A stretch of 64,000 bases of DNA from a virus, in the IMG/VR virus record IMGVR_UViG_3300045988_104912, positions 1 through 64,000 of that record; one strand, 5' to 3'. Under the pieces are notes generated by a model, which searched no databases, was not told where the DNA came from, and saw only the letters and a program-made list of their open reading frames with translations. How positions within the stretch are numbered: position 1 is the stretch's first letter; every line of letters begins with the position of its first letter. Positions 2,109-64,000 of this stretch are shown here, piece by piece. The position numbers were made by a program, and so were the translations under genes.

Positions 2109-2288
2109 CTAATTTCTCAAAAAGGTAGGCATCTCTGAGATGTTTACCAATTTGCCAAAGACTCTGATATATTCACCAGCCTTAATACGAGGTCTTTTAG
2201 GACGTTTGTACTTGCTGAGTGCTGATAATACCAAAGCTTTCTTAGCAACCGTAGAATAGGCTAATTTAGCCCTTTTTATAGGTTGCAT
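2109..2288 (-). CDS. small hypothetical protein (59 aa, below the track cut-off)
   Basis: Hand translation 'MQPIKRAKLAYSTVAKKALVLSALSKYKRPKRPRIKAGEYIRVFGKLVNISEMPTFLRN'. ATG start, TAG stop. Confidence 0.3.
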   Translation of the reverse strand: MQPIKRAKLAYSTVAKKALVLSALSKYKRPKRPRIKAGEYIRVFGKLVNISEMPTFLRN

Positions 2289-2403
2289 GGCTCACAATCG
2301 TATCATTATGATTACGCGAAGGGCCCTTTTCGATACGACAGAGGACGAACTGCCGACATTCTTGCATCCTTGATACAAGTCCGTGATGAGTGAAATATTT
2401 CAT
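2266..2403 (-). CDS. small hypothetical protein (45 aa)
   Basis: Hand translation 'MKYFTHHGLVSRMQECRQFVLCRIEKGPSRNHNDTIVSHATYKKG'. Overlaps the next small ORF by 23 nt. Confidence 0.2.
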   Translation of the reverse strand: MKYFTHHGLVSRMQECRQFVLCRIEKGPSRNHNDTIVSHATYKKG

Positions 2404-2416
2404 CTCTTAATAGAGA

Positions 2417-2575
2417 TTAGTTTCTATAGAATATTATAGCTATAATTTCTGCTATTAATCCTATTATAGGAATAAATGCACAAAATTTAATCCAGTCGGG
2501 TATATTATACTCAGCTAAATTAACTAACACACATAGCTGTATACAATACGTTAGGAATAGAAATAATAACATCAT
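2417..2575 (-). CDS. small two-TM membrane protein (52 aa)
   Basis: Hand translation 'MMLLFLFLTYCIQLCVLVNLAEYNIPDWIKFCAFIPIIGLIAEIIAIIFYRN'. Lies directly downstream of tRNA-Met on the same strand. Confidence 0.3.
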   Translation of the reverse strand: MMLLFLFLTYCIQLCVLVNLAEYNIPDWIKFCAFIPIIGLIAEIIAIIFYRN

Positions 2576-2590
2576 AGAGTTAAAATTTAG

Positions 2591-2664
2591 TGGGCCTTAC
2601 CAGGTTTGAACTGATGACCTTCGGATTATGAGTCCGCTGCTCTAACCAGCTGAGCTAAAGGCCC
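2591..2664 (-). tRNA. tRNA-Met (anticodon CAT; could decode Ile if lysidine-modified)
   Basis: The reverse complement folds as GGGCCTT-TA-GCTC-AGCTGGTTA-GAGC-A-GCGGA-CTCATAA-TCCGA-AGGTC-ATCAG-TTCAAAC-CTGGT-AAGGCCC-A. This is a complete cloverleaf, folded by hand. Confidence 0.9.
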
Positions 2665-2671
2665 TAAATTA

Positions 2672-2785
2672 GTTCCTGTAGGGAGATTCGAACTCCCCTG
2701 TCTAAATTATCACCAGAAAGTTATAATGGTGACAAAGTAGCTCTCCATATACCACACAAAGCTAAAGGTGTGTGACTATCAGGAA
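2672..2785 (-). ncRNA. tRNA-like / tRNA-derived element, non-canonical (about 113 nt)
   Basis: The reverse complement has a perfect T-arm, GGGAG-TTCGAAT-CTCCC. A 6-bp acceptor-like closure is present (TTCCTG/CAGGAA). The body is two 7-bp hairpins with 10- and 11-nt loops, not D and anticodon arms. Confidence 0.3.
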
Positions 2786-3067
2786 TCATTTCTCAAGGCA
2801 AAATTATTACCTCGGGCATGATGCAGCTATGACAATTAGTCATACACTGACAGCATTTCAAGCCCAGCTATTGCAGTTAGCCTACCTGTTTATCATTAAC
2901 ATCTGCAAACTGTTAATATTATCAGGTAATATTCATCTTAGACAGGATAATTGGCCTATGATGATGTAGGATTATGCATACCGCCTATGTGAGACAGTTA
3001 AGAGTGCCAAATACGGTTAAAGAACGTTGACAGTATGCACCAGTAGTTAAACATCTCTCAATGGATA

Positions 3068-3436
3068 CTACTGTTTATAGTCTGTACTTGGAGAGTGATA
3101 ATACCAGTAACTAAGACAAGTATGCTCATCTGCAGTGAGACTAAAATCTTGTATGTTCTGGAGACACCATTTGACATACCCAGCATCACTCTTGATAACC
3201 TCTAAGTATGTCTTATACTTGTATTTACCAAAGGTAAATATTCGTAAATCTTCCAAGGTCTTCTGCTTATAATAAGTAATAATATCCTGTGATGGATAAG
3301 TCTTACTTATAGCAGGATTCGTACTCGCAATGACCATAGAACCACTCGTTACTATGATGTGAAAGTAACGCTTCTGATATTGTCCATGACCATATTTGGA
3401 CCTAATGCCTCCTACTAAGACATTATAAGTACTCAA
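3068..3436 (-). CDS. hypothetical protein with DUF3820-like C-terminal motif (122 aa)
   Basis: 'FTFGKYKYKTYLEVIKSDAGYVKWCLQN' resembles the FGKYKG..L.E....Y..W motif of DUF3820 / ExoX-C-terminal-like domains. The only upstream in-frame start is TTG. Confidence 0.55.
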   Translation of the reverse strand: MSTYNVLVGGIRSKYGHGQYQKRYFHIIVTSGSMVIASTNPAISKTYPSQDIITYYKQKTLEDLRIFTFGKYKYKTYLEVIKSDAGYVKWCLQNIQDFSLTADEHTCLSYWYYHSPSTDYKQ

Positions 3437-7760: not shown

Positions 7761-7833
7761 TGGGAGATGGCTGACTGGTCTAGGCACTTGACTGTTAATC
7801 AAGGTTACGCAGGTTCGAACCCTGTTCTCCCAG
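7761..7833 (+). tRNA. tRNA-Asn (anticodon GTT)
   Basis: Folds as TGGGAGA-TG-GCTG-ACTGGTCT-AGGC-A-CTTGA-CTGTTAA-TCAAG-GTTAC-GCAGG-TTCGAAC-CCTGT-TCTCCCA-G. Complete cloverleaf, folded by hand. Confidence 0.9.
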
Positions 7834-7851
7834 CTAATTAATTTTAACTTT

Positions 7852-53035: not shown

Positions 53036-56000
53036 ATGGGAGAAAATGATGTAAAAGATCCTAGAGAGACTGGAGTAGGGGGAATGAAAGGCATTCCCTC
53101 TCTTATCCAGCAGGCTAATACTATAGCTGACATTTTAATGGGGACATCTCCTACTCAGTATAAGGCTGAGAATGTTGAAAGGTTATCTGAAAAACCTGCT
53201 ATAGAGGAAATCGGCTATATGCTTCCTAACTTTAGTAAGTATGATGAATCTATTCATACAGATGAAGACTTACTAAACTATCAAGAGCATAGAGCTAAAG
53301 AACAATCGGGTTTCCTTAAAGCTACCAATGCTGTTGTGGGTGGTGTAGTAAGTGGTCTTGCTACAGCTCTTGAGGACATTGGTTATATCCTTGACCTTGA
53401 GGGTCATTACAATACCTGGAATAAGCTTGATAATGACCGTGATAATTGGTTGTCTAAAGCTATGAGACAATTTAAAGAAGGTCTTAATGAAGCTATGCCT
53501 ATATATGAGACTGAGAGTGATAGTGCTTTAGGCCAGTTCTTTAAGTTCAGTACTCTAAAGGGCATGATTGACTCTGTAGTAGGCTTTGCTATCCCAGGAG
53601 GTCTTGTATCTAAAGGTATTGGTGCAGCTGTTAAACTTAGTAGAGTAGGATCTTTAGCTGCTATAGGACTTGCTAAGCTGAATGCTTCTGCAGGTACTAA
53701 AGTACTTGCAAATTCTTTAGGAGAGATTGCTAAAGATGTTACAGCTGGTGCTATTACTAACTATGCTGAAGGCCAGATGATGGCTATTGAGTTAGGAGAA
53801 AATGCTAAGCAGCATTACATTGAATCTAAGGCTCAGGAATACTATGAGCAATATAAAGATGCTCCTATTCCTCTTAGTATTGAGAATGCTCGTAAGTTAG
53901 CAGAAGATGAGTTTAATAACGACACTGAGGTACAAGCTAGAATAGGCAAAGAACAAGCTGAATTCGTCCGTAACAATAGAATATTCATGCTAACAGATGC
54001 CATAGGTCTTCATGGTCTTGTTAAGAGTAAAGGAGCTTTTAGGCAAGCACTTCTTACTAATCCTAAGGAGAAACTTAAGGCTATTAAGAACCTAGGTAAG
54101 CTTTCTGCAGATAATATACTCATTCAGGGAGCTAAGGAAGGTGCCGAAGAAATTGGGCAGAATATTCTTCAGATGGAGGGAGAATATCAGGTTCGTAAAG
54201 CTGCTGGTACTTTAACTGAGGAAGATGAGAAGCTGGGGGATACTTTCTGGGATAGAGCTCTTGCCTTTGGTACTTCAAAGCAGGCTATTGTAGAAGGTCT
54301 TATGGGAGCCGTTACAGGCCCTGGACAAAGAGCTGTGTCTAGAGTTGTGGCTAATGTAACTTCTGGAGATATTCTAGGTCGTAAACGTCGTGATGAGGAA
54401 TATCAATCGTATGTTAAGCAACAAGAATTTATTAAAGGAATTAATAATAAGCTTAATAATATTCTCCAAGCCGAGGCATTAAAAGCTGAAGCTATCTCTA
54501 GGGGAGATGATGTAACAGCGGATGCCATGTGGAATAAGGAGGCTGCAGATCTCATTACTGAATCTATCCAGAATGGTACTATTACAGCATTAGAGAGATC
54601 TACAGAAGATATTATTAATGATACTAGCAGAACTCCTGAGGAAAGAGAGCAAGCTCAGAAGTTGAAAGAATACATTAATGAATCTGAGAATGAGTATATC
54701 TTAGCTTCACATAATCCTAATAGTCAAGATATCTTTGACAATCGTATTCGACATAATACTCTTCAAACCTGGAGTAAAGATTTATATAGGGATATTCAAA
54801 ATAAACTTACAGATTTAAATGAATCCTTAAGTGCGAAATCTCCTGTTTATAATGTGAGCTTAGATAAAGATCTTAATTTCGAAGCTAATGCAAAAACCTT
54901 AGCACAATCTGAAGCTCCTGAAGCTTATAAAACTCTTACTGACCGTATTAAGCAGTATCGAGATGTTAAGAAAGCTTTAGATGATGTTGATAAGGAATAT
55001 AAGGAGATTACTAAGAAGGAGTATCAAGAGAAGTGGCTTGAGAACGAAGTTGAGAGGCTGCAAAAAATAGCTGCTGAAGCTGAAAAGCAGGCAGTTGAAT
55101 CTAAGGTAAATAAGCCTTTAGTACAGTATGATGATAATAATCAACCTATACTTACTAATAGAGCTCAAGTAGTTAAGGATGGGGATAATTATTTCCTTCG
55201 TGGCTATGATGATGAGCTCGGTACTTATAGTATACCTTTACTAGAAGAGAATGGTGTTGAGCGTCCTGTAAATTCTGCAGACTTAGAATCTTATAGAGAG
55301 GAAAATATTGAATCTGCTGAAACTACGGAAGCAACTGAGCCTACCCCTACTACTCCTGAAGTCAAATTTTTTACTCCTGCCGAACGTAAGGAACTTCGTA
55401 AGGAAGTAGATGAACTTAAGAGTCTGGATGATCTAGCTATTTGGAGAGAGCGATATAAGAATGACTCAACTCTTAGTGAAGAAGCTATCGAAGAAATTGA
55501 TGATTTATATCATCGAGCTCAAGATAGGATTATTAAAGCATCTGGAGAAGAAATTAAGGATGCTAATCCTGAGAATAACGATGCTCAGGAGATCGAATTT
55601 GTACGTTCTGATAGCTTTGATACTCCTGAAGCCAATGATGCTTTGTGGGATCCTCCTAAGAGATCTGCAGAGAATTACTGGCGAGGTTCTAAGGGCTCTG
55701 ATATAGCCAGCCGTGAGAATGGCAATGTAGATCAAATACGATGGTTTGACTTCCTTGATAAACATGATGCTTCTCAATATAGAGGTATTATAGTACCTTT
55801 CAAATATGAAGGTAAGACTGCTGGTAGATTAATTCTCACAGATCACGAAGGGAATTATATAGATGCTGATGGTAACTCTATTGGAAAAGAATTTGATCCT
55901 AATAGAGCTATCTACACTACTGTAGCAGATCCTACAACTGATGCTGATGGTAAGTACTATGGTACTCAGAAAAGCTTTGATTACTATAGAGCTATTTACA

Positions 56001-59000
56001 TTAGAGATGTTTGGGAACATCTACAAGATGGCGTAAGTGTACCTGTTGTTATTCAAGGAACAAGTGCTGGTATTATTGATGATAAGTACAAAAATGATGT
56101 TATCAAGAAGCCTGCACAGCTTAAGCCTTTAGCTGAGAGCTTACCTGCTAATATGGATATAAATACTTTAACGGTTTATATCTCAAATATTGGTAGAATT
56201 ATTACAGAGAATGGCCAAACCTTTACTGTTCCTGCAGGAACAATGGCTATCCATGATGCTACAAATAATAATTTCTATAGGGCTAACTCAGTACCCATTC
56301 AAGCAGGAACTAGGCAGTTCTTAGTAGATTTATTTAGGCATTATATTGCTAAATCTATTAAAGGAAAGACTTTTGTAAGTAACGATAAGTATACTCTTAG
56401 GAGTGGTAAAGAATTTGTACATTACGACTTTTTTGGAGTTCTGCGAGATTTACTTAGGTATAATAGTCATGGTGATCCTGCTCGTACTTTATATAATATT
56501 AAGGATGAGAATGGTCAGAATACTGTAAGGTGGAATATTGGAGATAAAGAGATAGATGCTGCTGTAAGAGATGAAAATGGTAACTATGTTATTAACGAAG
56601 AGTTTCTTACAGAGGTTAATAACTTCTTAAGTAAGGCTTTCTATAATCCTCGTTATTCAAAGATTAATCCTGCAAGTAAAGATTCTTATTACTTCCCTAC
56701 TAAAATTAATAAAGATGGTACGTTAGGAGCTAAAAAATACCAAAATTACCATACTTTTGTTAGAGAAAATTTAGTAGACTTTGTAGTAGATCCTAATAGC
56801 CCTTACGCGCATGCTGAGCGATATGTGACATATGATCCTTTGAATGTAGAAACTGTTACTTCTGATGAAGTCTCAGAGGCTAAAGAAGAGGTTTCTAAGG
56901 AGAAGTCTTTAGCAAGTGTTATTGATACTATTAGATCAGGTACTCCTGTAAAGATGATACTTGAGGTTACCAATCCCGCGAATGGTAATATTAATAGGTT
57001 TGACTTTGAAGCTCAATATGATGGTAAGAGTATTGTTAGCTCTGATCAGGAGAATGCTTTCCCTATAGTTGTTGCGGATCAGCTTAATCAATATGCGGGT
57101 AGAGAGGGAGCTACTTTAGCAGATGTTGCGAATGCTGCTCAAGCATACCTTGCTAACAGGATGGGTATTAAGGATCCTACTCAATTTAATGCTAAACTTA
57201 CTCTTGTAGAGGATAAGAAATCCCCTGTTTCAGAACCTACTCCACAGTCTAGTAATCCTGCTATAGCAGCACTTCAACGGCAACTTGAAAGTACTACAGA
57301 TCCTAAGACTAGAGCTCAACTTCAGAGAGCCCTAGATATGGCTAACAATCTAAACGCTACACCACAGAAGTCTAATGATAGTGTTCGTATTTCTACAGTT
57401 ACAAAATTCCGTAGGACATATGAACAAATGAGTAATTCTGCAAATGAGGAATTAGATAAAGCAGGAGAATGGTTTAAGAAGAAGTTTCCTGATATTGACT
57501 TCAAGATTGTTAAGTCTGCTATTGCTAAGAATGTAGTTGGTAAATTTGAGAATAGTGTAGTTACTGTATATCAAGGTACTGGTACAGAAGCTGTATATCA
57601 TGAGGCATTTCACGTTATTTTAGACTGCTTACTTACAGCAGATGAGAAAGCTAACTTAGTAAGGGAAGCTCTTAATAATGATGAATATAAAAGTTATTTT
57701 GATTCATTAAAACCTCTATATCCTGAGTTAGGCAGTGAAGAATTAGCCGAAGAGGTTCTAGCAGAAGCTTTTGCAGACTTTATGGTAACTGAGGATGAAG
57801 ATAATAATTTTATTAAGAAGATCTTTAAGTATATCAAGTATCAATTAACAAGGTTATATAATAGTATTCGGCATCTTGGTAAACCTAATAGGGAATGGAC
57901 TCAAAGTATACAATCTATTGTAGAGAGAGTTCGTAATAAAGATTTTCTTATGAATGATTATCTTACATTAAAGGCAACATCTCCTCACTATAAGGTTATC
58001 CCAGGTTTAGATGCTATTACTACAGCAGACGCTGTAAATAGTTTACACTATTGGTTTCTACAGTACTTTAAGGAGAATGGTAATCTAATTGATATACTAC
58101 AGTCAGAAAATGCTAAGATTGTGTCTGAGGCTTATGAATTTGCTCATAATGAGTTTGTAGGTCGATACAATGAAATCCTATCTTCTATAGCTTTCGCAGA
58201 TCCTAATTTGATGGAGCAGTATCTCTCTGATCTTGAGAAGTTACAAAAAGTTCTAGAAACTTGGAATGATCCCAAGGGAATCAAAGCTTTACATCAGCAA
58301 GAGCGGCTAGCACAATATAAATTAGAGTTAAATACTTCTGAAGATTATCAAGAATCCGCCTCTGAGATCTCAGGTGGTGAGAATAATCAAGGTCGAGACT
58401 CTGCGGCTTTATTTGCAGAATCTATTACTGTAAGTAGTAAGATGAACTCTAATAAGATCATAAAGCTACTTCTTAGTACCTTACCTAAGAAGCATTATGA
58501 TTTTAAGACTCGGGAAGCTATACCTTATAAGAATAGCTTAGGAATGCCTGAGGTTGAACCTTTTGGTAAGGTCTTTAATATCTTAGCAAATAAGTTAGCT
58601 AATCTTCCTACTAGCATTTCTATGCAAGAGCTGCAGAAGAGATTATCTCAAGTTGCTGAAGAATATCCTGCTATTTATCCTCTCATTCGAGATGAGGTTG
58701 TTTCACTTAGAACTCCCGAAGGAGAGATAACTACTCAAGTAGTTCCTTCTTGGCTCAAGTTAGATAAGGTTGATTCCTGGTCTGCTTCAGATATGCTCCA
58801 GGTTGTACAGTTCATGCAGGCATTTAATAATAACAAGAATAATTATCTTATAGGTATTACTAAAGCTAATGGGCAGTACACTATCTTCAATGCTTCTACT
58901 GTAGGTCATAGAGCTCGCATTGCAGGAGCATGGAGAGCTCAGTTATCTAAGTGGTTGTTAGAAGGTAACCCTGATATCATTAAATTTTATAACCGTAATA

Positions 59001-61927
59001 AATATAAAGTTTGGCAATATAATGCAGATGCTATTAAGAAAGCTTTTCCTCGTATCCCTACTGCTGATAATGCTGAAGAGTTCTTACGTATCTTAGGAAT
59101 AACCTATGATATCAATAATCCTGAGACTCTTCAAAAAGCTTTGCATACTAAGAGATTCTTAGATAAGATAGGGCAGGTTTACTATCAGATACTCAAGGGA
59201 TCTTTAAAAACTCCTATTGTTAATGAGAATCGTGATGGAGAGAACGAGAACTTAGACGCTTTCTTAGATATACAATCAGATCTTGGTATCGAAACTCTGG
59301 AAAATTCTCACATTTCACTTGGAGATGAAAGAATTTATGATCTTCAAAAACCTGGTTATATTAATCAGACAATCAATAAGATTAATCGAGTTATAGATAA
59401 TCCTGAGAAGCTATATTCAGAGATGCCTCATCTAGATCCTTCTCACAATATTTACGTAACACACTCTTTATTACTTAATAGAGCTCTTGTAGATAGAAGA
59501 ACTCCTAAATTATCAATCTTGATACATGAGGGTAATAGAGAGAATTCTAATGGTACAGGAACGGATTATAAGGATATGAAGCTTATAGATAAGCTTTCTA
59601 CAGTCCTTAATATGACTATGGAAGGTAGAGATAATATTATGAGACCTGCTGATAATGGTCAAGAGCGATTCCTAGATCATGGAGATACTTGGATTAATGT
59701 AAATACTACTCGTGGAGAAGTTATAGATATTTTCAGAGGCTACTTATGGGATGAAATTGCTAGATCTCATATCAAGGATAGAGCATTTACGAACTTTAAC
59801 AAGAACTATACTAAGGGTACAGTAATTGAAAGTTTGTTAACTCCTAATGAGATTAAAGAATTCTTAGTAGACACTGCTGAATCTCCTAATGATTTTGCAG
59901 ATAGAGTTCTTAATACTATAGGTAGAGATGTGTTATCTACTCGTATAGAGAGGATGATTAATACTTGGACTAGCAATGCTTATGATAAGCTAATAGACCT
60001 AGGAGGTCTTAAAGAACTAGCTAATGATCAAGTATTGAATATGTCTCTAAAGCTAAGTACTAATCCTACTACTAATCAGTACTCTAAATCTAACGTCATA
60101 AGCTGGATACGTCACGCAGTAGTAAATTATGCTATCGGTAATATTGAGCAAAGTAAGATATTATATGGAGATAATATATTCTATAAATCTTTAGGTGATG
60201 AATTCAAACGCCACAATGGTGCCATGGGTTCTAAGAAAACCTGCTTAACATCTGATGGTATTAATACTACTATAGCACGTGACTTTAAGCGTATGGATGG
60301 TGCTGAAAATCTCACTGATGAAAGTGGTAAGCCTATACTTAAAACTGCTGTATTCTCAGATGTTTCTAGCTATTCTAAGCAGTTATATCAGATTGCTGAG
60401 ATTGTAGATGCTGAGAGTAATAAATATAAGACACTTCGTAATGATGTTCTTGAGGCTTATGAGCACTCTGATAAGAGTAAATCTTTTGAGGATATGATGA
60501 CAGAAGCTCTTATTAAGAATGCAGATAAGTTAGGTCTCAATAGTGCTCCTTATGCAGATATGACTGAGGGTGATGGTTTCGGAATGATTTCATTAGATGC
60601 TTACCGAGAATTCAAAGTTAGAGTAGGAGATTGGAATCTTGATTCTGAAAAGCTTTATCAATGGGAAGTACAAGAAAGAGCAGGAGTTCCTGTTGAGGAG
60701 AGAGTGTTTGTAGATTTTGATGGTAATAAATCTCCTTTAACTCGTGGTAGTTGGGGTTCTCAGGTATTTAATTCCTTAAAACCTCAACACTTTGGTCCTT
60801 TAGCTAATGTTGAAGGATTTAAACCATCTTTCTATAAACTCTCGTTGATGCCTCTCATACCTTCTGTTCTGAAGGCTTTAGGAGATACTAACCTCTCTAA
60901 GCTTCATGAACTGATGATCAAGAATCAGGTTAGTGTAGCCGTACACTATTCAGCTAATAAAGGTGTAACTACTAAGACTAATTCGGTTACTAATGAGGAA
61001 GGTGTATTAGTTACAAATACAGAGCATCCTTTTAATGACTTCTACGATAAAGAAGGTAACTTCTTAGTAGATACTGAAGGTAATTATACTGGGCCTTTAG
61101 ATCTCCTTACTCAAGATACTTATTGGGAATATTGGGGTATTCAAGTAGACACTGGTGAACATAAACACCATGATGTAGTTACTGGTACTCAGATGATGGT
61201 GCAGATTCTTAACGGTCTATTTGATGCTGGAGAGATTAGTGAACACTTTGAGGAGAATACTCCTAAAGTTAAAGCTTTAGCTGAGGAGTATATTAGTCTG
61301 AATAATCAACGTATTGCTATAGGTAGAGATCAACTTGTTAAGGAGTTAGGTCTTGTAGCAACTAAGAAGGGATGGAAGATTTCTGAAGAGGGTATTGTAA
61401 GTCTCGTTAATTCTCTACGTCGAGAAGCTATTGAAAGGGGATTAGCGGATAATTACATTACTGCTATAGAACTCTTAGACAATCTCGATGATGGTACTAC
61501 TAATATAGATATTCTTCCTACACGTGAGAAGATTGAGAGTATTCTTATGAGTAGAGCTGCAAGTATGACTACTTCTCAGAAGCGTCATGGTACAGCAGCA
61601 TTCCAGGTACCCTCAACTATGTGGGAGACTAAGGCAAGCCGTACATATAATGAAGGTAAGTATAAATCTTCAGACTTAGACTTCGTAGTAAAATATGTAG
61701 ATGGTAAGCCTAAGATTACATCTATGGAAGTATATCTTCCCTCACCATTTAAGGGTATTACAAATGTAGGTAAAGTACCTCCTGAATTGCTACAGCTTAT
61801 AGGATTCCGTATCCCTACGCAGGGACTTAGCTCAATAGAAACTATTGTTGTTAAAGATTTCCTCCCTGAAGCAGCTGGAGATATTATAGTCTTACCTACA
61901 GAGATTGTTGCTAAGGCAGGCTCGGAT
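53036..61927 (+). CDS. giant virion RNA polymerase-like protein, exon 1 (2964 codons)
   Basis: Ends '...AKAGSD'. Splicing completes the sequence as 'GSDYDIDK'. Contains HEAFH at 57598-57612. Confidence 0.8.
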
Positions 61928-62840
61928 TAATATCATGGTTCGAGTAAAATTCTGTTAATTGCGGGGACCCCCTGAGAGTCTAAACTACCGAAGTGTAACA
62001 ATGTTTAGAATTGGGCAATCCGCAGCCAAGCCCCATATGGGGAAGGCTCAACGACTAATACTTAAATAACGTTTCCTTAATGGATAACAAAGCGTATGAA
62101 AACTAAGTTAAATAAAGATTCAAGAAATTTATTAATTGCATTATTACTAGGAGATGGAACTATTAGTAATAATAATGTATTTAAATTATCTCATTCTGAG
62201 GCACAGAGAGATTATTTAGAGTGGAAAGTTAAGCAACTTAATAATGCGGGTATTCGTAATAATGGAATACATGAATATGTTAGTACATGCGGATATAATA
62301 CTGGTCAAAAAGTTTTATATACTCAATTAGGAATAACAACTTTCATTAAATTGCTTAGGAGGATATTTTATAAGCCTAAGAAGTATCTTGGTAATAGACG
62401 TCTTCTAAATAGGTTAGATGCAAGAGGTATTGCTATCTGGTATATGGATGATGGATGTATCAATTATCGAATTACTAAAGGTAAATGCCATGGATTCTAT
62501 ATAAGAATATCCCTATGTGAGGATAAAGAAACCATTCAGAATGTAATAAATTTCTTTAAGGAAGAATGGAATATTTCTTTCTATCCTATATCAGAAGGTA
62601 GAGGTACTTATTCTTTATGCTGTGGTACTAAAGAAGGTATTAAATTTCTTGAAATTGTCAAACCATTTGTATCAGAAGTTCCATGTATGATACATAAAAT
62701 TACATACGACTTAAGTCAAAGATCTAGATCATTGTATGATAAAGAATCTTTGGGTAGGGCTTTAGAGCCTGAAATGCAGAACACTACTATTAGTAGTGAA
62801 GATATAGTCTAAACTTATATGAAAGTATAAGAGATTATTG
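61928..62840 (+). mobile_element. group I intron carrying a LAGLIDADG endonuclease gene
   Basis: 7-bp P1 with U.G at 61927/61938. Contiguous 7-bp P10 with 62841-47. Terminal G at 62840. Structured core at 61961-62090. Confidence 0.85.
62096..62812 (+). CDS. intron-encoded double-motif LAGLIDADG homing endonuclease (238 aa)
   Basis: 'LIALLLGDGTIS' and 'IAIWYMDDGCIN'. Confidence 0.85.
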   Translation: MKTKLNKDSRNLLIALLLGDGTISNNNVFKLSHSEAQRDYLEWKVKQLNNAGIRNNGIHEYVSTCGYNTGQKVLYTQLGITTFIKLLRRIFYKPKKYLGNRRLLNRLDARGIAIWYMDDGCINYRITKGKCHGFYIRISLCEDKETIQNVINFFKEEWNISFYPISEGRGTYSLCCGTKEGIKFLEIVKPFVSEVPCMIHKITYDLSQRSRSLYDKESLGRALEPEMQNTTISSEDIV

Positions 62841-64000
62841 TATGATATTGATAAAATGTACTTATATGTACCTAATTATTATAAGGTTAAGGGACAGCTT
62901 AAGTACATAGATTATTCTCATTGGGAAGAGCAATATGAGGAACTAGTTAACTCTTTAAAGGATGAAAAGAAGGAAGGTATCCTTGAAGCTCTAAGTGGAT
63001 TCTTTGGCAATAGTGAGCTACTACAAGAGCTTGCTGACACCAAGCAGACTCCTAAAGTATCTAAAGAAGAGTTTCATAAGAAAGCTATTGAGAATCGTAT
63101 TACTCAGATTCAGAAAGAGCTTGCTCATGTAGCTGAGAATGCTTCTAACTTTATAGCACCTATTCAGACCGACATCTTGGAAGCTTCTGCCAAGAGAGCT
63201 ATGAAAGCTGTCTTTGGAGATACTTATGAGATGGAGGCTGAGTATTATAAATCTAAAGCAGCTCTTCCTAGTATTCTAGATCCTACATATGTTCTACAGG
63301 TAGCTGAGAACTATATGGCTGGTAAGAAAGAGGTAGGTATTGCAGCTAATGCAGGTAAATTCTATGTATTTGCCTCCATGTATGACTTAGGGATACCTGC
63401 AGAAGAAGTTCAGATTAATTTTGAGCATAATGAGGAAAATGGTGTTGTTCAGCTTGGACGGAAGTTTACTGCTGGTACTAAGAAAATTCCTATTTCTGAG
63501 CTGTTAAATCAGTGGATTAGTGCTGCTGTGGACGCTGCTAAATCACCCTTTGGAGTGAATTTAGGAGCTACTCCTGCAACATTAGGAACGCTAACAATGC
63601 TTACTATGGCAGGAGTTCATCCTGATACTCTAGCACTCTTCATGAACCAGCCTATCATTCGTGAGTACCTGAAGCTACAGCAACAATATGAATCTCAGAT
63701 TGCTCAGGAGAACTATGTATCACCTAAATCAGCTAGGGTTAAGGCTGGCACAGCTATGGCTCGATATAATAAGAACGAGATTCGAGCATATCTGTCTATG
63801 AAATATCCTCCTATCGATGCAGCTGCTCCTGCTAAGGTTTTCACAGCTGATGAGCTTGAGAGTTATATTACTACTCAGAATTTAACTTATCAAAATCAGA
63901 TTCTTGATGATTTCATTCGGTATGTTGAATGGGGACGTAATGTTGCAGATGCTATGCAAGGTACTACCTATGATACTAAAGATGGTGGTAAAAATCTCTC
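62841..64000 (+). CDS. giant virion RNA polymerase-like protein, exon 2 (partial; runs off the window)
   Basis: The frame is open from 62823 to 64000. It begins 'YDIDKMYLYVPNYY...' and is absent from the ORF track because it has no stop. Confidence 0.8.

Follow-up and report, generated by a model that had tools for sequence, protein, structure and literature searches.

The classical group I introns of bacteriophages (td of T4, with its endonuclease I-TevI, and nrdB and sunY of the same phage, together with those of Twort/K-like phages, SPO1 and Listeria A511-like phages) lie in the catalytic region of an essential gene, carry a looped-out open reading frame (ORF) and present an early in-frame stop. 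The intron endonucleases of T4 are GIY-YIG or HNH enzymes. Here we describe a 64,000-nucleotide stretch of viral DNA (positions 1 to 64,000 of the IMG/VR record IMGVR_UViG_3300045988_104912; hereafter the window) in which the catalytic motif of a crAss-like virion RNA polymerase (vRNAP) gene is interrupted by what is very probably a functional and mobile intron of group I that encodes a homing endonuclease. As in the classical introns, a stop follows the 5' splice site and the endonuclease ORF overlaps the ribozyme core at its 3' end. However, the endonuclease is of the LAGLIDADG type, and the host gene is predicted to encode a two-barrel RNA polymerase (RNAP) of the virion-packaged type, whereas the classical hosts are nucleotide-metabolism, DNA polymerase and lysin genes. 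The core of an ORF-less form of the intron shows 69-73% identity to Staphylococcus, Enterococcus and Listeria phage introns in matches of about 150-190 nt, which overlap endolysin and DNA polymerase coding sequences (CDSs). The encoded protein is comparable to the I-SceI family (PDB 1R7M, 6X1J), whose members are likewise two-motif single chains of about 235 aa encoded by group I introns; the likeness is remote and the target site is unrelated.

Within the same virus order, Yutin et al. 2021 (Nat Commun 12:1044; PMC7886860) described dense group I introns and inteins in Delta/Zeta crAss-like phages, with introns in core genes. In the legend of their Fig. 3, a LAGLIDADG protein among the genes of the transcription block is labelled 'intron-encoded endonuclease maturase', and disruptions in the Zeta group 'within the DxDxD motif of RNAPB'' are ascribed there to unknown expression mechanisms. 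The window's intron is of the same element type. The text of that article contains no ribozyme structure, splice junction or RNAP insertion site, whereas the case presented here belongs to Steigviridae (a Pipoluvirus-like clade) and is exact to the nucleotide; in its supplements and in later reviews, neither the insertion site nor the ribozyme is described. This is a known kind of element in a host gene and at a site so far undescribed in text, and the databases leave the intron unannotated. For the polymerase itself, the reference is gp66 of Cellulophaga phage phi14:2, in which 1361-DFDID-1365 is the catalytic motif and alanine at any of the three Asp residues abolishes RNA synthesis; packaging of a vRNAP in the virion and its injection for early transcription are known only for phi14:2 (bioRxiv 10.1101/2020.03.07.982082).

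Interruption of the vRNAP catalytic motif

The window is about 84% identical to its closest GenBank record, MT774385, from uncultured phage cr108_1 (Crassvirales, Steigviridae, Pipoluvirus). According to the ORF list and its translation, the ORF at 53036-61930 holds 2964 sense codons and then ends with TAA at 61928-30. Exon 1 of the vRNAP gene (53036-61927, + strand) comprises these 2964 codons, the last of which, GAT, encodes the first Asp of D-Y-D-I-D. Exon 2 (62841-64000, +) starts TAT GAT ATT GAT AAA, or YDIDK, and runs past the end of the window. Between them lies the 913-nt intron (61928-62840, +), which is in phase 0, opens with the in-frame TAA and ends with G62840. When 61927 is joined to 62841 the frame is kept, giving 3350 aa free of stops to 64000; with a slash marking the insertion point, the joined translation is TEIVAKAGSD/YDIDKMYLYVPN, also read as AKAGSD/YDIDKMYLY. 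An earlier note on this DNA had claimed the 2964-codon ORF, its stop, the reopening at 62841 and an in-frame join yielding GSDYDIDK, and translation reproduced all of these coordinates. At the nucleotide level the ligated junction 61927/62841 is GCTAAGGCAGGCTCGGAT/TATGATATTGATAAAATG, and the expected ligated-exon sequence reads GGAUUAUGAU.

We searched for the host gene's relatives by tblastn with a 264-aa spliced junction peptide. Matching vRNAP genes were found in 144 phage records, many annotated as RNAP, including p-crAssphage KP06_gp44 ('putative RNAP catalytic subunit...') and g066 of phi14:2; among the matches listed, all except cr108_1 cross the junction in one piece. BLASTP against gp66 likewise gave a single-piece alignment, with residues 1311-1552 (E = 4e-23, 32% identity over 254 aa), in which TEIVAKAGSD/YDIDKMYLYVPN lies over TEIPTKTGSDFDIDKMYVMLPN and GSD/YDIDKMY over GSDFDIDKMY. 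The tail of exon 1 aligns up to D1361 and exon 2 to residues 1362-1552, placing the intron between D1361 and F1362 in gp66 numbering. The earlier note had named the Asp triad of such polymerases and proposed an alignment to crAss-like vRNAP motifs; that alignment sets D/YDID directly over DFDID. Other searches were less productive: a PDB search that used the final 1000 aa of exon 1 as a single sequence returned no match, gp66 included, Pfam recognized no family in either exon segment (DUF3584 was sub-threshold), and a protein search with a 320-aa spliced peptide returned merely 7 short metagenomic fragments.

The g066 gene is uninterrupted and encodes 2180 aa, whereas the window's gene contains the intron and would encode about 3760 aa once spliced, the greater length being due to extra N-terminal sequence. 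Because of the in-frame TAA at the start of the intron, the product of unspliced RNA would lack two of the three Mg-binding Asp residues. From a break inside an essential Asp motif, followed at once by a stop, it follows that an active polymerase would require splicing.

Intron-less alleles exist among close relatives. A scan for the predicted ligated junction found 11 intron-less contigs. Two of them share 95.8% (L137) and 94.8% (L140) identity with the spliced exons of the window over 600 nt and carry an unbroken GSDYDIDK, which fixes the splice boundaries. A survey of the 80 best vRNAP loci in IMG/VR showed 69 with no break in D[FY]DxD and 11 that are interrupted, all of the latter in the window's clade. 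Two of 13 loci that had been flagged as interrupted turned out to be contiguous motif variants (DFDFD and DFDDD). The earlier note had regarded a lack of any contiguous intron-less allele as telling against an intron; with L137, L140 and the 69 loci, such alleles are at hand. An intein was also considered and rejected, because the insert is an element at the level of RNA, opens with a stop and does not stay in frame over its whole length.

Ribozyme structure and covariation

The Rfam model Intron_gpI (RF00028) matched 61896-62176 with 55.6 bits (E = 4.7e-13), above its gathering score of 50, and a second segment at 62797-62829 corresponds to J8/7-P7'-P9. The element at 61928-62840 was the sole intron match by Rfam across the 64-kb window. 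An ORF-less homologue of 296 nt, at the same nucleotide in cr108_1, scored 80 bits over the full model.

The internal guide sequence (61931-61944, +) consists of TATCATG (61931-37), which is the P10 strand, and GTTCGAG (61938-44), which is the 3' strand of P1. P1 pairs the latter with the exon bases CTCGGAT (61921-61927, +), U61927 and G61938 forming the splice-site U.G wobble, and P10 pairs the former with TATGATA (62841-62847, +), the first bases of exon 2. The 5' strand of P3, TTCTGT (61950-61955, +), finds its partner GCAGAA (62776-62781) across the endonuclease ORF. The P4-P5-P5a domain (61960-62024, +) contains P4 (61960-65/62019-24), P5 (61970-72/62013-15) and P5a (TCTAAAC 61979-85 with GTTTAGA 62003-09), and the P6 hairpin follows at 62025-62047 (+; GCC..CCCC-ATAT-GGGG..GGC, with the inner CCCC/GGGG at 62031-42). 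The 5' strand of P7, GACTA (62053-62057, +), pairs with TAGTC (62805-62809) in a P3/P7 pseudoknot, and P7 matches the Rfam consensus UCAACGACUA ... GAUAUAGUC. The 3' half of the core (62776-62831, +) is made up of P3' (62776-81), P8 (62782-88/62792-98), J8/7 (62799-804), P7' (62805-09) and P9 (62814-20/62825-31).

The endonuclease ORF is inserted between the 5' strand of P7 and P3'; the ORF-less form has P7.1/P7.2-like hairpins at this place, 45-46 nt in all. Upstream of the ORF lies the 5' half of the core (P1, P3 5', P4, P5, P5a, P6 and P7 5'; 61921-62057), and the 3' half is overlapped by the last 12 codons of the ORF and its stop. P1, P10 and the terminal G at 62840 are present as the earlier note had described them. 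Its statement that a structured core precedes the ORF holds for the 5' half, the helices it named being P5a and P6, but not for the 3' half, which is located at or beyond the 3' end of the ORF. Helix placement by the full Rfam model (P1 within exon 1, P3' and P8 at the start of the ORF) was dropped in favor of hand assignment, which agrees better with the ORF-less homologue and with covariation; the model misplaces P1, P3' and P8 because the 714-nt ORF insertion breaks it. The intron is of the phage IA-like type, with no P2. The P7.1/P7.2-like insert and sequence resemblance suggest an IA2-like subgroup, as an informal placement.

When IMG/VR was scanned for the exon-intron junction, the intron turned up at this site in 12 further contigs, and the later survey added one more, L161. 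Taken together, the window, GenBank and IMG/VR provide 15 intron-bearing alleles, of which 7 have the endonuclease gene (912-913 nt) and 8 are ORF-less (296-297 nt), cr108_1 (L001) from GenBank being one of the eight. The predicted structure was tested on an alignment (A1) of 14 introns, 11 same-site alleles and 3 distant relatives, from which the variable insert had been removed; it comprises 62 hand-assigned pairs and 842 cells. Standard pairs occupy 97.6% of the cells, and this share falls to 33-44% once the 3' partners are displaced by 1-3 columns. Compensatory changes, with both sides altered, occur in 26 of the 62 pairs, and none of 500 shuffles reached the observed value of any of five measures.

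The signal is distributed over most of the helices. P1 is maintained in 100% of cells across the 14 introns, with compensatory changes in 3 of its 7 pairs and the splice-site U.G invariant in 14/14, and P10 has 3 compensatory pairs; both covary with the differing exon sequences of phages cr131_1 and cr116_1 and bajarodcaudo virus. In P3, 4 of 6 pairs are compensatory and all cells are paired (UUCUGU/GCAGAA, UACCGU/GCGGUA, UCGUG/CACGA). P5a (5/7 pairs), inner P6 (4/4) and P8 (5/7) also show compensatory changes, and P4 and P5 are 100% paired. P7 is invariant in all 14 introns, hence uninformative for covariation. In L161 a U>C change in the guide converts one G.U pair of P1 to G-C. A terminal G was present in 19/19 introns examined (15 at the window's site and 4 distant). 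Such a pattern of maintained covariation indicates that the intron is not a decaying relic, and the earlier note's assignment to group I is borne out both by the Rfam score and by the conservation, with compensatory changes, of P1, P10, P3-P9 and the terminal G.

Two observations concern the make-up of the intron forms. The ORF-bearing L113 and the ORF-less L125 share the tail variant AAGAATATTTG, and most others have AAGAGATTATTG (the equivalent of 62832-62840 in the window). The two length forms also differ in P6 and in the length of the P5 extension (31 vs 76 nt). These shared tails and P5/P6 differences point to recombining mosaics rather than a simple series of ORF deletions.

Exact copies of the 18-nt core string GGGCAATCCGCAGCCAAG (P5'-P4'-P6) are present in more than 120 unrelated IMG/VR contigs, giant-virus bins included, and the string marks the intron class and not this element. 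One contig (L063) has four copies of the string within 5 kb, which suggests intron-dense regions elsewhere.

The LAGLIDADG endonuclease

The ORF at 62096-62812 (+) encodes 238 aa with the two motifs LLLGDGTI and IWYMDDGCI. Pfam assigns it to PF03161 (LAGLIDADG_2; E = 1.7e-18), its 67.5 bits being above the cut-off of 25. A profile built from five homologues matched the I-SceI family in the PDB (1R7M and 6X1J) over residues 3-204 with E = 5.6e-07 to 2.5e-06, whereas a single-sequence search was marginal (E about 0.1). Alignments of ten homologues show no change at the acidic motif residues (LLLGD20GT and WYMD118D119GC). Diverged copies give a dN/dS of 0.05-0.10, with dS about 0.8-1.1, and the protein is under strong purifying selection. 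On all of these counts the product is a LAGLIDADG protein, as the earlier note had proposed. The protein would be expected to cut DNA at a specific target.

A conserved motif, TTTCC(T/-)TAATGGATAA(C/T)AA, is located about 15-30 nt upstream of the endonuclease start in the window (62066-62082), in bajarodcaudo virus 1 (L146, ~2483-2499) and in cr131_1 (L144, ~2484-2500), and is kept although these introns have diverged elsewhere and occupy different insertion points. A P7.1-like hairpin is one possible explanation, a signal for expression of the endonuclease another. The genome of cr108_1 has, beyond the region that corresponds to the window's end, a second LAGLIDADG-like ORF (MT774385.1 74916-75458, -) with 27.5% identity to the window's endonuclease (E = 1e-4), which may belong to another intron or be a free-standing homing endonuclease.

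Mobility of the intron

Comparison of intron and exon divergence gives the clearest indication of movement. The window's intron is identical at 913 of 913 positions to those of L126/L132, whereas identity in the flanking exons is only 83.8% (600 nt) and 85.8% (1100 nt). An identical intron in diverged exons indicates horizontal transfer between phage genomes, and by this comparison the intron is evidently mobile. ORF-less introns are discordant as well: L001 and L127 are 94% identical in the intron and 65-69% in the exons, and L039 and L128 are 99.3% and 85-90% identical, respectively. Between L001 and L128 the discordance runs in the opposite direction (intron 89.5%, exons 93-95%). Within a single genus the three states expected of a homing cycle coexist, namely intron with endonuclease, intron alone and empty site.

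The exon sequence around the insertion point bears on the same question. The 14 intron-bearing alleles compared show no variation in the exon bases between -9 and +14. Of 1700 exon positions, 17 distinguish the intron-less L137 from the intron-bearing L125, and six of these are at -13, -10, -7, -4, -1 and +3, all of them third codon positions and synonymous; the interval from -10 to +5 contains five of the six (binomial P about 3e-7). L125 was chosen for this comparison because an indel inflated the ungapped divergence between L137 and L039 to a spurious 28%. The intron-less junction reads GCAGGCTCGGAT/TATGATATTGATAA; the cognate intron-less site is GGCTCGGAT/TATGAT, and its natural variant in L137 is GGTTCTGAC/TACGAT. 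The changes at -4, -1 and +3 would weaken P1 or P10, and that at -7 merely converts a C-G pair to U.G. This cluster fits a short co-conversion tract, or a P1/P10 constraint, that fixed the bases in intron-bearing alleles. Alternatively, the substitutions in the empty allele may represent escape from cleavage, a reading mildly favored by L133, a more distant intron-less allele in which three of these bases are as in intron-bearing alleles. The proposal of the earlier note, that the endonuclease 'homes to' the least mutable codons of the gene, receives indirect support from the identity of the intron across diverged exons.

It is improbable, but worth weighing, that the intron splices while the LAGLIDADG protein acts mainly as a maturase or is an inactive endonuclease, with spread occurring only through general homologous recombination between co-infecting phages. 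The discordance of the ORF-less introns would be expected under such a scheme, the low dN/dS shows selection and is silent on which activity is selected, and the label used by Yutin et al. in the figure legend of their article is 'endonuclease maturase' (PMC7886860). However, the catalytic acidic residues of both motifs are kept in all ten homologues, and a 913/913 match within exons of 84-86% identity is the outcome expected of endonuclease-driven homing. The synonymous cluster sits right at the empty site, as expected of an attacked target, and ORF-less forms could be mobilized in trans by the enzyme of ORF-bearing relatives.

Some of the same observations, with others, weigh against the view that we prefer, a functional intron spread by its own endonuclease. 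Because ORF-less introns are discordant too, some of the spread may be ordinary recombination or the work of an endonuclease acting in trans. Low dN/dS would fit a maturase role equally well. The case for splicing catalysis is drawn from conservation, and the helix structure used is our own hand assignment, tested by covariation.

The same motif in other phages

Homologues of the endonuclease (52-66% aa identity) are found in four other phage records, each within an intron at the same catalytic motif. All four introns have a P1 ending in U.G, a P10 and a terminal G. In cr131_1 (NC_055902.1, Suoliviridae) the motif is split as GSD/FDIDH, the same position as in the window; in MT835470 it is split as GSDY/DIDK, and in cr116_1 (Steigviridae, Pamirivirus) and bajarodcaudo virus 1 as GSDFD/VDK. 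The three insertion points (D/YDID, DY/DID and DFD/VD) thus lie within 6 nt of the motif. Rfam scores for the introns of cr131_1 and bajarodcaudo virus 1 (44.9 and 47 bits) are below the gathering score, and its search of the cr116_1 and MT835470 introns reported nothing.

A tentative generalization, which we hold rather less likely than its converse, is that the DFDxD loop of Crassvirales vRNAP is a recurrent homing hotspot, with at least three positions used within 6 nt, at least two families affected (Steigviridae and Suoliviridae), coexisting states of the homing cycle, and empty sites that look like escape variants. If so, such introns may explain part of the Zeta-group RNAP disruptions 'within the DxDxD motif' noted in the article of Yutin et al. 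(PMC7886860), and splicing would decide whether the enzyme with which each infection begins can be produced at all.

Two of these relatives have features of their own. The LAGLIDADG ORF of cr131_1 (L144, 2501-3229) contains two in-frame TAG codons, one of which is aligned with a Gln of the window's protein, and the flanking vRNAP exon has eight TAGs in 783 codons. The presence of TAGs in both genes indicates that the endonuclease gene took on the TAG recoding of its Suoliviridae host, and its translation would then need a phage suppressor tRNA. No suppressor tRNA was seen in the 64-kb window, where the vRNAP gene translates under the standard code; the tRNA genes found there are tRNA-Met(CAT) at 2590-2664 (-) and tRNA-Asn(GTT) at 7761-7834 (+). 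The intron of L147 (MT835470.1, a 117-kb unverified 'Bacteriophage sp.' record; 2130-3240) has a far larger P1 loop and far larger P5 and P6 extensions, a td-like P4-P5 sequence, ACGGGGAACUCC, and a divergent vRNAP-like host gene (RIPAQT ... GSDY/DIDKAY).

Integrity of the polymerase gene

In the GenBank/RefSeq records of cr108_1, cr131_1 (L144), cr116_1 (L145) and bajarodcaudo virus 1 (L146), the vRNAP gene appears as two 'hypothetical protein' CDSs with no intron feature; the homologue of exon 2 in cr108_1, for instance, is annotated as a CDS of 798 aa. The start codon of the downstream CDS sits in or at the 3' end of the intron in all four, for example a TTG at 12222 of L001. Taken at face value, these annotations describe a truly split polymerase, with products of 2964 aa and about 800 aa assembling in the absence of splicing, and an insert consisting of a decayed intron relic plus a free-standing endonuclease gene. 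In addition to the paired CDSs of cr108_1, cr116_1 and cr131_1, with their TTG or ATG starts at the intron end, the two barrels of cellular RNAPs do reside on separate subunits.

We nevertheless consider a split enzyme very unlikely. The break falls within a five-residue Mg-binding loop (D/YDID) in which each Asp is essential in gp66, not between domains. The ribozyme core is under structural selection, with compensatory changes, and at each of three insertion points P1 and P10 have changed in step with the exon sequence. Moreover, the exon bases that form P1 and P10 are invariant in 14 intron-bearing alleles and not in intron-less ones. Exon 2 lacks a conserved start codon, and the annotated TTG lies within the tail of the intron. 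A misjoined assembly or chimera, in which 913 nt of foreign sequence were brought into the gene, has next to no chance of being correct, as only the unspecified and probably metagenomic origin of the window speaks for it and the insertion recurs at the same nucleotide, in two length forms, in 14 other independent contigs or records of GenBank and IMG/VR.

Proposed mechanism and significance

We propose that a functional, mobile group I intron operates as follows. The vRNAP gene would be transcribed into a pre-mRNA whose intron begins with TAA, so that translation of the unspliced RNA would yield merely the 2964-aa product. The 14-nt guide at 61931-61944 would align the last seven bases of exon 1 through P1 and the first seven bases of exon 2 through P10. 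Transesterification initiated by guanosine, and a subsequent attack at G62840, would then ligate 61927 to 62841, restoring GSDYDIDK and a polymerase of about 3760 aa. During co-infection the 238-aa monomeric LAGLIDADG enzyme would cut intron-less alleles at the conserved site, and repair from an intron-bearing genome would copy the intron in. As the 3' end of the ORF overlaps P3', P8 and P7', any one RNA molecule can probably either be translated into the endonuclease or fold into the ribozyme, not both. The intron may also have a timing or regulatory role.

Several consequences follow for the Crassvirales. In the four records with a split annotation the true vRNAP would be one protein of roughly 3,800-5,800 aa, judging from annotated CDS lengths, and work on the family and on its structure should start from the spliced form. 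The endonucleases may serve as rare-cutting enzymes with a defined target. A specialist would not be surprised by an intron of this type, yet the annotation of a key enzyme is corrected in several reference genomes. No general principle is changed, and the locus further illustrates the rule by which mobile introns come to reside in those codons of essential genes that are least free to mutate. The coexisting alleles offer a natural system for intron homing and resistance to it in gut phage populations. Finally, in these lineages the enzyme that launches infection by abundant human gut viruses could probably be made only after splicing, which would add an extra, so far unstudied step to the expression of their genomes.

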